This document shows positions 1 through 50,728 of a DNA stretch of 64,000 nucleotides, piece after piece (the first letter of the stretch is position 1; the number at the start of each line of letters is the position of its first letter). The notes under the pieces are model-generated. The model was not told where the DNA came from. It made no database searches and was given only the letters and a program-made list of their open reading frames with translations. A program made the position numbers and the translations under genes. Source of the stretch: Escherichia phage vB_EcoM-Ro111lw; sequence record MH571750.1; one strand, given 5' to 3'.

Positions 1-16
1 GCCCCCTTAACATTTT

Positions 17-1110
17 CTTAACAATTTCTTAACAAACCCTACATAGTTATGCTTTTAAGGCACTTGTTAGAGACTTGTTAGCCCCTTGTTAAATCTCTGT
101 TAAGACCACGTAAAAGCCTTGTAAGAGTCTTTGGCATAGCCTTTAAAGCTCCTATAAAGCCCTATAAAGAGGTGTCTGTATAGTTGGGGTGTAGATACTA
201 GGAAGAGGTTTAAAAGAGCTTACAAGGAGCTATAGAGAGCTTTTAAGAGGTATGTTTAAGAGTTCACTAAGAAAGGAAAGGGAACGATAAGGAAGAGATA
301 GTGACCATGTTAATAGCTTGTTAAAAAGATTAAACACTTGTTAGAAACTTGTTAATTATCTAATTGGTATTGTTACCAATCCCTAACAAAATAACTCTTT
401 AAAATTAACTTGTTAGCTCTTGTTAGTCATCTGTTAAGCCTCTGTAAAGACTATTCAGCACTTGTTAGAAAACTGTTAAGCCCTTGTTAGTTCTGTTAAG
501 AAACTGTTAAGACCTTTGAAGAGTTGTTAAGAAGATGTGAGAACTGTTAAGAGATTGTTAAGGATATTTTAAAATTTTGCAAAGTACTTGTAAGGGAGCT
601 GTTAAGGGCTACCAAGCAGATATACATCTTCTACAGATATTTTTCAGTCCCTTCAAAGACCCTAAAAAATGACTTGATAGCCCTATTTTATAAAAATTTT
701 AAAATTCTGAATAATTACCTATACAGTCTTTTAAAAATACAGGTAGAAACAGGCTTATAAGATACCTTGTTAGTACCGTGTTAGACCTTGTGAGATAAGG
801 TCTGTAAAGATATTCCTGTTAAGTTTGTTAAAACAGTCTATATAGAGGCTTAGTATTACCTAGTGAACCCTATAGAGGGTAACATAGCTAACCTAGAGAT
901 TAAGAGGTGTATAGAGGTTTCTAAGAGCGTATAGAGAGGTGGTTAAGGTGATTGTATAGGTTGTTAAGAAGGCTTGTTAGAAGAGTGTTTAGAGGGCTAT
1001 TTAGAAGGGTTATACAGAGGGGCTATTAAGACCACTAGATAGTTACTAAGATACTATATAGTACTATATAACTATATAGAGAGTAAGATTAAGAAGGTTG
1101 TTAAGAAGGA
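17..1110. repeat. Dense array of about 30 short degenerate repeats (consensus YTTGTTAR / CTGTTAAG, some inverted as CTTAACA) interleaved with GTATAGAGRG and CCTATAAAG motifs; iteron-like non-coding region
   Basis: Read directly: e.g. acttgttag at 62-70 and 73-81, tctgttaag 97-105, cttgttag/ctgttaag run 408-563, ccttgttag 765, gttgttaag 959 and 1098; tatagag motifs at 867, 909, 930, 1073. No ORF of 60 aa or more in 1-1214. Confidence 0.6.
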
Positions 1111-1170
1111 TAGATATTTTATTCACATATGATGGTGACCCAGAGGTTGGGACAACCGATAAAATTTTAT

Positions 1171-8441: not shown

Positions 8442-8605
8442 AGATAATCCTCTTGTCTTCTGTAATTTTGAAAGAACAGGTACAGACCAATTTCAGAGGA
8501 TGAATAGTAGATTAACTCTACCCTTTTTGATTCCTTACAGTGATTGGTATTCTTACCTTTCTTCGGTTTATTTGATTTTCTCATTAAGTCTCCTTTGTAG
8601 AACAA
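8423..8605 (-). CDS. Hypothetical small basic protein (60 aa), first gene of the minus-strand operon
   Basis: ORF track; weakly supported. Confidence 0.3.
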   Translation of the reverse strand: MFYKGDLMRKSNKPKKGKNTNHCKESKRVELIYYSSSEIGLYLFFQNYRRQEDYLCVVPN

Positions 8606-8682
8606 GGCAGACCTACAGCTTAACTAAGATGGTACAGTAATCCATACAACAAGTCAAGAACTATTGCAAGTTAAAAAAGTTG

Positions 8683-8707
8683 TTGACAAAGTACTTGACA
8701 AGGTGTA
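8683..8707 (+). promoter_or_regulatory. Conserved 25-nt motif with tandem TTGACAA half-sites 12 bp apart (GTTGACAAAGTACTTGACAAGGTGT) in a divergent intergenic region; second copy at 50107
   Basis: Identical except one base to the sequence at 50107-50131; both lie between divergently transcribed gene blocks. Confidence 0.5.
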
Positions 8708-8832
8708 GGCTTATAAATACTTAGAAGATAACTTAAAAGGTTCCTCTAAAAAGGCTATTTAAACAGATATCTTTCTGGATATCTATCTTTTATCTTAAAA
8801 GCCTTTTAAGAGGTCTTATAAGAGGCATACCA

Positions 8833-16459: not shown

Positions 16460-16535
16460 GAATCCGTGACAGAAATGGCTATGTGCCTGTCTGCAAAACA
16501 GGTTTATAAGGGTTCGAGTCCCTTCGGATTCTCCA
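16460..16535 (+). tRNA. tRNA-Cys (anticodon GCA)
   Basis: Perfect acceptor GAATCCG/CGGATTC, anticodon stem CCTGT/ACAGG loop CTGCAAA, T-arm AAGGG-TTCGAGT-CCCTT, CCA. Confidence 0.8.
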
Positions 16536-43110: not shown

Positions 43111-43440
43111 TTAATCTGCCAGCCTTAAATTAAAATTAACACCAAATTTTTCGCATACTTCCAACATATACTCAAGGGAGACATTACCAGTGAGGTGGAT
43201 TATGTTGGATACGCGAGCCTGAGAGATACCACAAATTTTAGCAACTTGCTCTTGAGAAAGACCTCTGGATTTAATCTCTCTCTTAAAACGATGTGCAACG
43301 AAGTCTCTCATTTCGTCTACATCCATTGGACAAATATAACTCTCCATTTCAGCCTCTCTGTCAGCCTCCCAATCATCTTGTGGAGCATAAGGGTCAAAAG
43401 TCTCATTCATCTTTCTTCTTCCGTTTGCGTGAAGTGTCAA
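43111..43440 (-). CDS. Helix-turn-helix (XRE-like) DNA-binding protein (109 aa)
   Basis: GLSQEQVAKICGISQARVSNIIH is a classic HTH recognition pattern. Confidence 0.6.
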   Translation of the reverse strand: MTLHANGRRKMNETFDPYAPQDDWEADREAEMESYICPMDVDEMRDFVAHRFKREIKSRGLSQEQVAKICGISQARVSNIIHLTGNVSLEYMLEVCEKFGVNFNLRLAD

Positions 43441-47348: not shown

Positions 47349-50048
47349 TTAGTGTACTTCAAGCCAGCTTTTACCAACCTTACCAGTACCTGTTACAAGT
47401 GTTTCTTTCTTAAGACCTAAGTTCTTAGAAGCTTGTCCATAATACCAGTCAGTAACTGCTTTCACTTCTGCCGTCATACTTTCTGGACATTCCCAGCTTG
47501 TTTCATCGTGATATGCGCAGAGCAAACGAGCACCAATAGCTGGTTTACGACCATTTAACTTCATCAAACCTTCGTCAATCATACGACGACAAGCAAGGTT
47601 AATTGCCTCATTTTGAATCTGACTTTCCGAACCCATAAGCAAATAATTCAATAACTTATGTGGAGATTTACACCACAACCAAGCTCCAGCAACCTTTACG
47701 AAGCCCCCTTTAGAGATTGCAGCAGTCTTACCAAACACCTCTTCAAGTGCCTTTTTAGTCGCTTTGTAGTCAGCTTCCAAGTCATCCAGCAGCTTCTTAA
47801 TTTTAGGCAAACGAATAAAGTAAGTCTGTTTGGTCAGTGCACCTTCCTGAGTAGTTGCAGCTTTAATCGTCTTAGCAAACTTCTCATCACCTGCACCGAA
47901 CAGCAGTGCATAGATACCATTCTTAGCTTTCTTACGACCCTTGCTAATCTCATGGAGAAGGTTCTCATCCTGAGTAGCTCGACAAGTCAAGATATCCTGC
48001 TCATCATTCAAGCTAAAGTAAATACTGTTCAGTGTGTGTGCATCAGTCCCTGAATAGACAACGTACAGGTCATTCTCAGAGTCATAGCGAAGGTACTTAT
48101 CAATCTCTGGGTTGAGGTACTCATCAAAGTGTTTGCAGTAATAGCGTCCATCCTCTTGACGAATAAACTCAATCTCTTCTTTACCTTGCGTTACCGCTTT
48201 GGTGAAGTCTTTGTCACCCATAAAGTTACAAAGGAGAACTAGCTGGGCTGAGTTCATGTCTACAGAGACAACGTTAGTACCTTCCTCACAAATCCACACT
48301 GCCCTCATTGGTTCCCCATAGACAGCAGCACCAGACGGTACGTTTACAATACCATATTGTGTCATACGTCCAGTTGAAGTACCAAATACCATTGCACCAG
48401 CACTAAGGCGACCATCAGGACGAATCTGGTTTAGCCAACCTTTTTCATCATCCTTTGAGTTCTCAATGGTTCTGCGTCGGTGCATCAAAGTATAGTACTT
48501 AGCAATCTTCTGTCCAAGCTCACCTTCAATCGTATCATAAGAAGATTCAGTAAGTTTTGGTGAAGTACGGATTAAACAAGGCTCAAGCAAATCTGTGTAC
48601 TTCTTAACAGACCAGTTATGCTCAATGTACTGGACACCTTCATGTTCAACATAACTCAAGCCACACCGTTCAACCATCTCCTGCCACTTAGGATGCTTGG
48701 TAATCATCTTTTTGTTGTCTTTGAAACGACAAACCTTAACAGGACGACCATCTGAGTCTTTCTTGTAGTTCCAGTCATCTGGAATCCAACCAACTGATTT
48801 CAAGTAATCTTTAACAACTGCTACCTGAGTCATACGAGAAACTTCGAACTCAATTGGTGTATATGGTGCATCAATCAAACCTGTGTAGCGACTTGACTCA
48901 AGTCCAAAGTGGTTAACAACATGGCTGTTATAGTACTTCACAGTCTTAACTGTTTTTACTGGCTTCCAGTCTTTGCATTTCTTACCAATCTTTGCATTCA
49001 ACTCATTGCAAATTGCACGAGCATCCTTCATTGCTACAAAACCTTCCTTGTACTCTTCACCAGTTACAGAGTTGGTTGGCGTATAGCAATTTCTCTTTTC
49101 AATGTTAAAAATCTTTGTAGTTGGCTTACCAAATGGTTTGATTTCATAAGTCTGCATCTCACCATTACGTACCTGCTGACGATACTTTGTCTTAGGGTAC
49201 TTGGTAATCCTCTTCAGTCCATCTGCATGACCAAATGTTTCAACATACTCATTCCAAGCCTTTGCAAACTCTTCACCAGTTACTTTACCTTTGGTCTTAA
49301 TAGTTGGTGGTAGATGTGGTTCAACCTCTGAAGCAAGCTCATTAGTCAACTTGTCAAGTTCCTTTACATGGAACTCCATAAGTTCTTTATCAGCTTTCCA
49401 ACCATTGATAGCTTGCTGGCTCATCCAGAAAGATGTCTCTTTAGCTCGCATGTAGGTTTCATAAGTGTCTATGCCACACTTCTTAAGCTTGAGATACTCG
49501 TTATCAAGTGCCCGTTTAGTTTTGGCGTTAATACGGATATCTTCTACAACACGAGTGAAGATTTCTGCATTCCACACACCCCAATGTTCAATCTCTGGCT
49601 TACGAACACCAACACGAGCACCCCATGCAGCCAAACCATGAGCACCTTTATAACCCTTTGGAGTTGGTCTATCCATCCACTGAACACGAGACTGGATAAG
49701 AGAATCCTGAAAGAAATTACTCCACGGCTTACATTTTGGATTATCAAAGTTCCATAAATCCGGTGCAATGTGATTGAAGACCCACCAGTCATAACCGAGG
49801 CCGTTATGGATACAAAGTCGTTTTGCCTTTAACGCAAACTCAACACCTTCACGTAAACCACCCTTAATGTACTTAGTGTACTTGTGACCGAGGATAGGCT
49901 CATCTGTAAAGACCCATACAGGTGGCTCTTCATCGTCAGATTTATAGTCTGCAAAGGCCATTACGTGAACTTTAGTGAACTCAAGGAGTAAACCATCAGT
50001 TTCTGTATCACCAACCAAATGTAAGTTTTTAAAATCTACGTTTTCCAT
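47349..50048 (-). CDS. DNA polymerase, family A (T7 gp5-like), with 3'-5' exonuclease domain; start placed at the internal Met preceded by an RBS
   Basis: Exo motif VGDTETDGL near N-terminus; polymerase motif C region ...LLCAYHDETSWECPE...; ORF track gives 47349..50078 but GGGAGT sits 6 nt upstream of the ATG at 50048. Confidence 0.9.
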   Translation of the reverse strand: MENVDFKNLHLVGDTETDGLLLEFTKVHVMAFADYKSDDEEPPVWVFTDEPILGHKYTKYIKGGLREGVEFALKAKRLCIHNGLGYDWWVFNHIAPDLWNFDNPKCKPWSNFFQDSLIQSRVQWMDRPTPKGYKGAHGLAAWGARVGVRKPEIEHWGVWNAEIFTRVVEDIRINAKTKRALDNEYLKLKKCGIDTYETYMRAKETSFWMSQQAINGWKADKELMEFHVKELDKLTNELASEVEPHLPPTIKTKGKVTGEEFAKAWNEYVETFGHADGLKRITKYPKTKYRQQVRNGEMQTYEIKPFGKPTTKIFNIEKRNCYTPTNSVTGEEYKEGFVAMKDARAICNELNAKIGKKCKDWKPVKTVKTVKYYNSHVVNHFGLESSRYTGLIDAPYTPIEFEVSRMTQVAVVKDYLKSVGWIPDDWNYKKDSDGRPVKVCRFKDNKKMITKHPKWQEMVERCGLSYVEHEGVQYIEHNWSVKKYTDLLEPCLIRTSPKLTESSYDTIEGELGQKIAKYYTLMHRRRTIENSKDDEKGWLNQIRPDGRLSAGAMVFGTSTGRMTQYGIVNVPSGAAVYGEPMRAVWICEEGTNVVSVDMNSAQLVLLCNFMGDKDFTKAVTQGKEEIEFIRQEDGRYYCKHFDEYLNPEIDKYLRYDSENDLYVVYSGTDAHTLNSIYFSLNDEQDILTCRATQDENLLHEISKGRKKAKNGIYALLFGAGDEKFAKTIKAATTQEGALTKQTYFIRLPKIKKLLDDLEADYKATKKALEEVFGKTAAISKGGFVKVAGAWLWCKSPHKLLNYLLMGSESQIQNEAINLACRRMIDEGLMKLNGRKPAIGARLLCAYHDETSWECPESMTAEVKAVTDWYYGQASKNLGLKKETLVTGTGKVGKSWLEVH

Positions 50049-50106
50049 TTTTACTCCCTCTAAAATCATTAACCTCATACATTACTGCAAAAAATTATAA
50101 AAAGCA

Positions 50107-50131
50107 AGTTGACAATGTACTTGACAAGGTG
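50107..50131 (+). promoter_or_regulatory. Second copy of the tandem-TTGACAA 25-nt motif (GTTGACAATGTACTTGACAAGGTGT) in a divergent intergenic region
   Basis: 24/25 identical to 8683-8707. Confidence 0.5.
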
Positions 50132-50305
50132 TTAATCTTTGCGAAGTGGGTTTTTACTTAAAAGGTTACTTAACAGTTTAACTATACAGATACTTTAAAA
50201 CTCTTAAAAGATTATTTAATAGCTTTTAAAAAGCTTTAAAGTATAACGTATAGAATACGTTAAGATAAAAGATTAAAACTTAATAGTTACTTAAAAGAGG
50301 CTTAC

Positions 50306-50728
50306 ATGCAGAAAATGTTTGTTCACCCAGACATAGCTGACTTTGTTAGAGCTTTGCAGAAGTTGGAAGAACTTGACATTGCTGCTCAACGGGAATATGC
50401 TCACCATCACAGGAGAATGGTTGATATACAACATGAAATAGAGTTGTCTGAAAACTATGAAGATGACTTAAAATGCTCTGTATTTGAGCATATGAAAGAT
50501 GTTGCTACAGCGAGACGTAAAGCTAAAGACACAGTTGCTTTACTAGATTCTCTTAAAAAGAGGTTGCAAAGTGGTACAGACCTGTGTAATCTAGCGTCAC
50601 TGATTAACGATGTTGAAACTTCTTGGGATAGGCACTATTATCCACGTTCTGAAAAGACACTTGACTTTTCTTCATCTGAAAACTTAAAATGTTCTAGAAA
50701 GAAACTTAACCAACTGAGAGAGAAATAA
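50306..50728 (+). CDS. Hypothetical protein (140 aa)
   Basis: ORF track. Confidence 0.5.
   Translation: MQKMFVHPDIADFVRALQKLEELDIAAQREYAHHHRRMVDIQHEIELSENYEDDLKCSVFEHMKDVATARRKAKDTVALLDSLKKRLQSGTDLCNLASLINDVETSWDRHYYPRSEKTLDFSSSENLKCSRKKLNQLREK

Follow-up and report, generated by a model that had tools for sequence, protein, structure and literature searches.

The closest described counterpart of the element treated here is P41, a host-type promoter predicted for phage Felix O1 (Whichard et al. 2010, PMC3185647). The element is a 25-nt sequence containing two TTGACAA heptamers in tandem, and it occurs twice in a 64,000-nt stretch of Escherichia phage vB_EcoM-Ro111lw (MH571750.1; this whole stretch, numbered from its first letter, is called the window below). 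P41 was built on the same first TTGACA that opens copy 1 of the element, and paired it with TATAGG at N15. Our reading of copy 1 agrees with P41 in the locus, in the first TTGACA and in assigning the site to the host polymerase, and differs from it in the choice of -10, the TATAGG of that prediction not being conserved; the doubled -35 and copy 2 went unnoticed. The same paper found no other homologous sequence in the 40-41 or 96-97 regions, placed open reading frames (ORFs) 41, 42, 96 and 97 in the same 25-minute class by reverse transcription PCR (RT-PCR), a very broad class, and left temporal regulation and terminator read-through unexplained. The wV8 paper and later genome notes do not discuss these elements. 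Within the literature searched, site 1 is partly known, whereas nothing earlier describes site 2 or the doubled -35 and its conservation.

With the canonical Escherichia coli sigma-70 promoter, including its UP and extended -10 elements, the two sites share TTGACA, a 17-18 bp spacer, TAnnnT, TGn (at site 2) and an A-tract, whereas their -10 is weak (3/6) and their spacer contains a conserved second perfect -35 hexamer. Lambda CII and P22 C1 are small helix-turn-helix (HTH) proteins that act on direct repeats at the -35 (TTGC-N6-TTGC, in pRE-type promoters). What those sites have in common with ours is the direct repeats at the -35 and a small phage HTH protein as putative reader; the lambda repeats flank a poor -35 with a 10-bp period, whereas in this phage each repeat is a consensus -35 box in its own right and the period is 12-13 bp. 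A parallel for contact between sigma region 4 and a -35-like element is also found in the lambda Q-engaged complex. At the late promoter PR' of phage 82, region 4 bound to a -35-like element pauses the polymerase at +14/+15, and RNA longer than ~15 nt displaces region 4 (summarised in PMC3326312). Like the sites here, such lambdoid late promoters have a TTGACA-like element downstream of their own -35, within the reach of region 4 (RNA < ~15 nt), and head long terminator-containing operons.

The window belongs to a myovirus of the Felix O1 type (genus Felixounavirus) and spans the greater part of its genome. It has the gene order of wV8 and Felix O1, and the DNA around each copy of the element shares 96-97% identity with phages such as KhF2, typing phage 1 and SeKF_63. 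From the ORF positions and the GC skew, four transcription blocks can be delimited, which lie head to head at two divergent regions, ~8605-8833 (site 1; gene 40/41 in Felix O1 numbering) and ~50049-50306 (site 2; gene 96, encoding DNA polymerase, and gene 97). Copy 1, GTTGACAAAGTACTTGACAAGGTGT, lies at 8682-8706 on the plus strand (exact match) and takes in the -35 hexamer and the spacer of the promoter that faces right in the gene 40/41 region; copy 2, GTTGACAATGTACTTGACAAGGTGT, with one mismatch, lies at 50108-50132 on the plus strand, between the DNA polymerase gene and gene 97. The heptamers start 12 bp apart, at 8683 and 8695 in site 1 and at 50109 and 50121 in site 2.

A preliminary description of this DNA had reported two near-identical 25-mers with tandem TTGACAA, differing at one base, each in an intergenic region with genes diverging on both strands. 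Both copies were located, and the flanking gene boundaries are 8605 and 8833 around copy 1, ~50049 (the DNA polymerase start) and 50306 around copy 2; the coordinates given there, 8683-8707 and 50107-50131, were wrong by +1 and -1, respectively. A motif scan of the window yields only these two copies, with no further match at three or fewer mismatches, and the complete wV8 genome has exactly two, at the same two places. Dinucleotide shuffles gave no match (0/100). The likeness between the sites reaches past the 25-mer: they align in an A-tract upstream and in a ACTTAAAAGGTT block 24-25 nt downstream of the 25-mer, at 8731-8742 (plus strand, ~+13 in the predicted leader) and 50156-50167 (plus strand, ~+12). 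This makes the two sites paralogues, each a module of promoter plus leader.

For the DNA polymerase, the longest ORF begins at 50078 on the minus strand. Within the region 50047-50078, an ATG ~30 nt further downstream, at ~50049, is the more likely start, since the ribosome-binding site GAGGGAG is conserved and several relatives are annotated with this start; the site-2 intergenic region is therefore ~256 nt long.

The preliminary description had seen no -10 at a spacing suited to sigma-70. The first TTGACA of each copy does have one, a TAnnnT at N17 in site 1 and at N18, with TGn, in site 2. To follow these hexamers across the family, sequences of relatives were gathered through anchors outside the element, chosen to keep the sample unbiased; at site 1 they form 11 distinct variants, which come from unclassified contigs as well as from Felixounavirus, Suspvirus and Mooglevirus, and at site 2 they form 8. 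The -35 TTGACA of the first rightward promoter (P-right-1; 8683-8688, plus strand) is invariant in the 11 variants and stands 17 nt before the conserved TAnnnT, here TAGGCT (8706-8711, plus strand), for which the variants are TAGGCT, TAGCCT, TAAGTT and TAGTGT. The -35 TTGACA of the second (P-right-2; 50109-50114, plus strand) is invariant in the 8 variants, and is followed by an extended -10, TG-t-TAATCT (50130-50138, hexamer 50133-50138, plus strand), in which TG never changes, the n position holds T or G and the hexamer reads TA(A/G)TCT. Both promoters are oriented toward the rightward genes.

Across genera, -10 positions T1, A2 and T6 are constant at both sites, and variation is confined to positions 3-5 and the 'n' of TGn (states per column 1,1,2,3,3,1 at site 1 and 1,1,2,1,1,1 at site 2). 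T-12, A-11 and T-7 are the -10 positions that matter most to sigma-70. Judged by these alignments, the pattern of variation is the signature of a sigma-70 -10 hexamer. More distant Ounavirinae, from Erwinia and Pectobacterium, have single-hexamer promoters at the two places: TTGACA-N17-TAGGCT in Arno162, TTGACA-N17-TACATT in Pistou, TTGACA-N18-TACCCT in Wc4-1 and, at the corresponding place in phiEa104, TTGACA-N16-TAGAAT. The wV8 genome has 35 intergenic TTGACA-like/TAnnnT candidates, a set into which both element promoters fit; some of the 35 have the upstream context AAAAAAGTT or TTTAAAAAAGTTnTTGACAA, and the A-tract context TTTAAAAAAGTTnTTGACAA recurs at other strong promoter candidates of the phage. 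At site 1 the A-tract is an A6 run (8673-8678, plus strand, ~-45 to -40), which we take to resemble the proximal subsite of an UP element.

On the strength of the -10 conservation, the plain promoters in distant Ounavirinae, the fit to the 35 wV8 candidates and the host-type promoters already predicted (P41) and annotated in a GenBank record at site 1, the first TTGACA is very probably the -35 of a host-type sigma-70 promoter. The predicted transcription starts are ~8717-8719 (site 1) and ~50144-50146 (site 2). The phage-specific promoter class that had earlier been offered as one explanation gives way to the ~35 host-type candidates of the family and to the plain TTGACA-N17-TAnnnT found at the same positions in distant relatives.

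The second TTGACAA lies inside the spacer of each promoter, at ~-23 to -17 (8695-8701 at site 1 and 50121-50127 at site 2, both plus strand), and is invariant in 11/11 and 8/8 variants. Promoter spacer sequence is normally not conserved. Here the columns between the two hexamers are variable, all six of them at site 1 and four of six at site 2, and over the site-1 alignment as a whole 21 of 36 non-hexamer columns vary while the 12 hexamer columns are all invariant. A naive calculation that ignores phylogeny puts at ~6e-4 the probability of finding all six columns of the second hexamer (hexamer 2) unchanged at both sites. Hexamer 2 is the exact sigma-70 -35 consensus in every lineage, and at site 2, by sequence and alignment, it is followed by no -10-like hexamer 15-18 nt later.

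A third doubled promoter lies outside the window, at wV8 12517-12545 (TTGACAATACCCATTGACATTGG-TAACTT), with a 13-bp period and N17 to the -10; it has no -10 partner for hexamer 2 either. It is kept in SP116, Mordin and EcSzw_1, which represent three genera, with hexamer 2 invariant and hexamer 1 once TTGACG. Being invariant at sites 1 and 2 and at wV8 12517, hexamer 2 is, by this comparison of relatives, under selection in three promoters, and the element is real and functional. The wV8 12517 promoter stands within an early region that is rich in annotated direct repeats. The Erwinia phage phiEa104 also has an intergenic doubled promoter, at 16494: TTGACATTCTACTTGACAGGGGC-TAAAGT, that is TTGACA-N6-TTGACA-N5-TAAAGT, with the geometry of sites 1 and 2.

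The doubled architecture extends well past this family. We scanned the viral contigs of IMG/VR for consensus promoters (TTGACA...TATAAT, N17 overall), varying the second hexamer and its offset. With a second TTGACA at a 12-bp offset (TTGACA-N6-TTGACA-N5-TATAAT) the scan found at least 120 contigs in at least 47 clusters, compared with 27 contigs in 16 clusters for a composition-matched scrambled hexamer, ATCAGT, at the same offset. A TTGACA 12 bp past the -35 is at least 3-4 times commoner than the scrambled hexamer, a lower bound. A second TTGACA at an offset of 14 bp gave 22 contigs (13 clusters), at 9 bp at least 120 contigs (at least 66 clusters) and at 7 bp 95 contigs (35 clusters). The matches come from many unrelated contigs and are promoter-like, with A/T-rich sequence upstream. 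As far as such counts can tell, the excess points to a general reason at the level of the polymerase, and not to a family-specific regulator.

Among the IMG/VR loci (L119-L343) are many viral contigs of 4-13 kb whose doubled promoters are almost the same, for example AAAAAGTTG-TTGACA-AAGGGC-TTGACA-TGTGT-TAAAGT, with a conserved CGGTGT(A/T)CCCC after the promoter; they represent a large family of unknown phages with the same architecture.

On balance we lean toward reading the element as a sigma-70 promoter core whose spacer contains an extra -35 box for sigma region 4 to read. The host polymerase with sigma-70 would use the 25-mer as a promoter core to drive the rightward unit from each divergent region, and starts near 8718 and 50145 would give transcripts with long conserved leaders. 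Region 4 is the most economical reader of the extra box, because the repeated unit is exactly the -35 consensus in every lineage; that the box acts through region 4 we hold tentatively, as a serious possibility that falls somewhat short of probable. Hexamer 2 could be a second docking site that helps or speeds the capture of polymerase. Or region 4 could re-bind hexamer 2 after a movement of ~12 bp, so that promoter escape, sigma retention or an early pause would be affected; hexamer 2, 12-13 bp past the -35, is exactly where region 4 lands once the polymerase has moved 12-13 bp. In either case hexamer 2 would not be the binding site of a dedicated phage repressor.

Several observations weigh against a role for region 4 or against the promoter core itself. 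Both -10 hexamers agree with TATAAT at only 3/6 positions, and for this reason a standard consensus scan missed them. The literature searched holds no mapped transcription start for any Felix O1-like phage. Lambdoid late promoters differ in having a -10-like pause element, which classical sigma-dependent pausing needs; none is present downstream at the matching register in the three doubled promoters. There the bases 12 bp past the -10 are AGTGGG for site 2, AGGGGG for wV8 12517 and, for site 1, TACTTA or, in some genera, CACTTA. Pausing here is a proposal from sequence, and no Q-like protein was found among the subset of proteins scanned. A phage protein that recognises TTGACA repeats would leave an identical conservation footprint. 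The enrichment in viral contigs was measured with a single scrambled control hexamer and lower-bound counts, and the 7- and 9-bp offsets are enriched too, which one mechanism does not obviously explain.

A bolder form of the proposal would make the doubled -35 a dedicated re-docking site for region 4. The polymerase would be held, or sigma kept, ~12-13 nt after initiation, as a checkpoint at which a phage factor (e.g. a Q-like antiterminator) could load at the head of the long, terminator-rich rightward operons, and the device would be widespread in strong phage promoters. The excess of TTGACA-N6-TTGACA in viral contigs hints at such a spread; we nevertheless consider this extended version quite improbable.

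Of the other explanations, the one that survives best, although we judge it unlikely, is the direct-repeat operator of the preliminary description. A phage regulator would bind both TTGACAA heptamers, one of which doubles as the -35, and would shut off or modulate the two rightward promoters and the third doubled promoter. What speaks for it is that selection acts on the second TTGACAA, which lacks a -10 to itself: heptamers that stay constant while the bases between them are free form the classic footprint of two separate half-sites, and a hexamer 2 without its own -10 at site 2 and at wV8 12517 is also what an operator would predict. It is no longer the best reading, because the unit is the exact -35 consensus, the architecture is present in phiEa104, which lacks the regulator, and it is over-represented in many unrelated viral contigs. 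An operator whose unit is the exact sigma-70 consensus would need coincidence or mimicry.

The candidate regulator is an XRE-type HTH_3 protein (43114-43440, minus strand, ~100-109 amino acids), the only recognisable transcription regulator of the phage. It matches HTH_3 and related generic HTH families; a match to Phage_CII was not reported. In favour of its involvement, it is the only Pfam-recognisable DNA binder among the 59 wV8 ORFs that have no phiEa104 homologue, and its tblastn matches are limited to Felixounavirus, Suspvirus and Mooglevirus (plus a weak match in Zymomonas), the clade with doubled hexamers at both sites; by the same search it was not detected in Erwinia or Pectobacterium Ounavirinae. 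ORFs 41 and 97 belong to one RT-PCR time class, and lambda CII and P22 C1 provide a precedent for a small HTH protein on direct repeats at a -35. However, 73 of 144 ORFs are equally clade-specific, so the co-distribution of HTH_3 is weak evidence, and phiEa104 has a doubled promoter of the same geometry without HTH_3; a phyletic link between the protein and the doubled hexamers is weakened on these two grounds. Sites 1 and 2 have a 12-bp period and wV8 12517 one of 13 bp, against the helical 10-11 bp expected, and XRE-type HTH dimers usually sit on inverted, not direct, repeats.

Hexamer 2 might instead be a -35 in its own right, giving two overlapping tandem promoters with starts ~10-12 nt apart. 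Site 1 invites this idea: its hexamer 2 is followed at 15-16 nt by AATACT or AACACT, kept as AAnACT, and a GenBank annotator marked exactly this N15 promoter. No TAnnnT is found 15-18 nt past hexamer 2 at site 2, however, and none at wV8 12517, so tandem promoters are not general, and the conservation of hexamer 2 at those two places would go unexplained. Nor do the viral contigs favour it, since among the matches listed a -10 partner for hexamer 2 occurs in 8 of 47 clusters at the 12-bp offset and in 3 of 16 for the scrambled control, the same proportion. We consider overlapping promoters very unlikely as the explanation of the element.

We give equally little credence to a functionless hexamer 2, left by a 12-bp slippage duplication of the -35 region, copied between the sites and not yet decayed. 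The sites are clearly paralogous beyond the 25-mer and the intergenic regions are very conserved overall (~90% mean column identity), as such a history would allow. But the variation sits between and after the hexamers, in the 21 of 36 other columns that vary at site 1, and spares the 12 hexamer columns; the naive probability given above for an invariant hexamer 2 at both sites speaks against neutral persistence, with its neglect of phylogeny; and a third promoter, wV8 12517, non-homologous to the others, has the same pattern.

Scarcely credible, finally, is a phage-specific apparatus (a phage RNA polymerase, a phage sigma factor or appropriation of the T4 MotA/AsiA style), for although the element is common to exactly two control regions and the temporal regulation of the family is unexplained, the -35, the spacing and the -10 all match the host consensus, the authors of the Felix O1 paper detected neither a phage RNA polymerase nor polymerase modifiers of the T4 type, there is no MotA box (which would take the place of the -35, with its centre at -30 and 11-13 bp away from the -10), hexamer 2 being centred at ~-20, 4-6 bp from the -10, with a consensus -35 present, and the T4-late-like TATAAATA at 8712-8719 is not kept in Suspvirus, Mooglevirus or other variants.

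A number of known sites were also compared with the element and rejected. Read on the reverse strand it recalls a PhoB box (TTGTCAA-N5-TTGTCAA), but, judged from the sequence and general knowledge, its period is 12 and not 11 bp, its first base is T and not C, and it lies upstream of the leftward -35. Inspection by eye gave no IHF, CRP or FNR site consistent at both sites. A palindrome around hexamer 2, CTTGACAAG, is not conserved in Mordin, L043 or wV8 12517. The site-2 leader has a resemblance to a lambda nut site (boxA + boxB), with CTCTTAAAAG ahead of a hairpin of 5 bp and a 5-nt loop; it was dropped, the boxA-like CTC not being conserved. Copy 1 was also considered as a packaging site or genome end, the GenBank record of Si3 beginning at ~8716 of the window, just past copy 1; that start looks arbitrary, because PhageTerm-based reports give Felixounavirus direct terminal repeats and the starts of records are compatible with genome ends within the gene-less left-hand part of the window.

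Leftward promoters can be proposed at both sites. At site 1 a consensus scan gives TTGACT (8657 to 8652), N17 and TACCAT (8634 to 8629) on the minus strand (8629-8657), a stretch without variation in 5 genomes of 3 genera. At site 2 the alignment suggests, for the DNA polymerase gene, TTGCTT (50107 to 50102), N17 and TAATGT (50084 to 50079), also on the minus strand (50079-50107); the spacing is kept in Felixounavirus, Suspvirus and Mooglevirus, with TAATGT or TAGGGT as the -10. The leftward and rightward -35s of site 2 stand back to back, 1 bp apart, and the invariance of the bases directly upstream of copy 2 would be explained by the leftward -35 occupying them.

The predicted leaders, 8718-8832 and 50144-50305 (~115 and ~160 nt), are more conserved over three genera than the genes that follow them. 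Their folding beats that of shuffled sequence, with z = -3.45 at site 1 and -2.60 at site 2. The site-1 leader forms one long hairpin that includes the palindrome TCTTAAAAGcCTTTTAAGA. The site-2 leader has a hairpin at 50246-50260, ACGTAT-AGA-ATACGT, which in Mooglevirus is ATGTAT-AAC-ATACAT; two pairs are changed on both sides and the pairing is kept. Rfam scans of both regions at permissive E-values returned only noise and no known RNA family. CTTAAAAG, an 8-mer for which ~5.5 occurrences would be expected in the window, is present 18 times, and 6 of the 18 lie in the two leaders. In the Erwinia and Pectobacterium relatives the leaders are full of AACAG and TTAACAG repeats, which are related to the 8-mers of the array described next.

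The left end of the window (1-1150) is gene-less and probably adjoins the physical end of the genome. It holds at least 22 copies of an 8-mer family (CTTAACAG, CTTAACAA and CTAACAAG), mostly on the minus strand, with neighbours often 10-12 bp apart; at 6-35, three plus-strand copies of CTTAACA(A) follow one another with an 11-bp period. The array 8-mers are one base apart from the promoter CTTGACAA, with A for G in every case. A single reader for the promoter hexamers and this CTTAACAR array was considered and discarded: the 22 or more array copies have A and the promoter hexamers always G, which makes two recognition classes. The array is probably a set of binding sites for a phage protein.

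The product of the first rightward gene at site 1 (8833-9204, plus strand) is a DUF5681 protein that has GNPxGRPKG as an N-terminal motif. Felix O1 was reported to lack a recognisable small terminase subunit; for this reason, and because the gene heads the packaging/morphogenesis unit, its product is a candidate small terminase subunit. Further strong host-type promoter candidates lie before the tRNA cluster and a gene of 471 amino acids, at 10707-10760, 10798-10850 and 9200-9245, all on the plus strand (TTGACA-N17-TAATAT, TTGACA-N18-TAAAGT and TTGACA-N18-TAAAGT, respectively). The first two have TTTAAAAA(A/G)G upstream, as does copy 1, and the candidate at 10707-10760 overlaps t42, listed as a terminator in the Felix O1 paper.

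Felix O1-like phages are widely used in Salmonella typing, biocontrol and therapy, and the two rightward promoters are concrete sites to map and mutate in them, one of which, beside the DNA polymerase gene, had earlier been reported as not found. In their second -35 box, kept throughout, selection on the spacer of a promoter can be seen in a small but clean form. If an operator should after all be the right reading, it would be the first regulatory circuit identified in this phage family. If region 4 does read the box, these promoters would show in nature, and perhaps commonly among phages, a mechanism for which only the lambdoid late promoters have been described until now, and would be of interest for the design of strong or tunable synthetic promoters.

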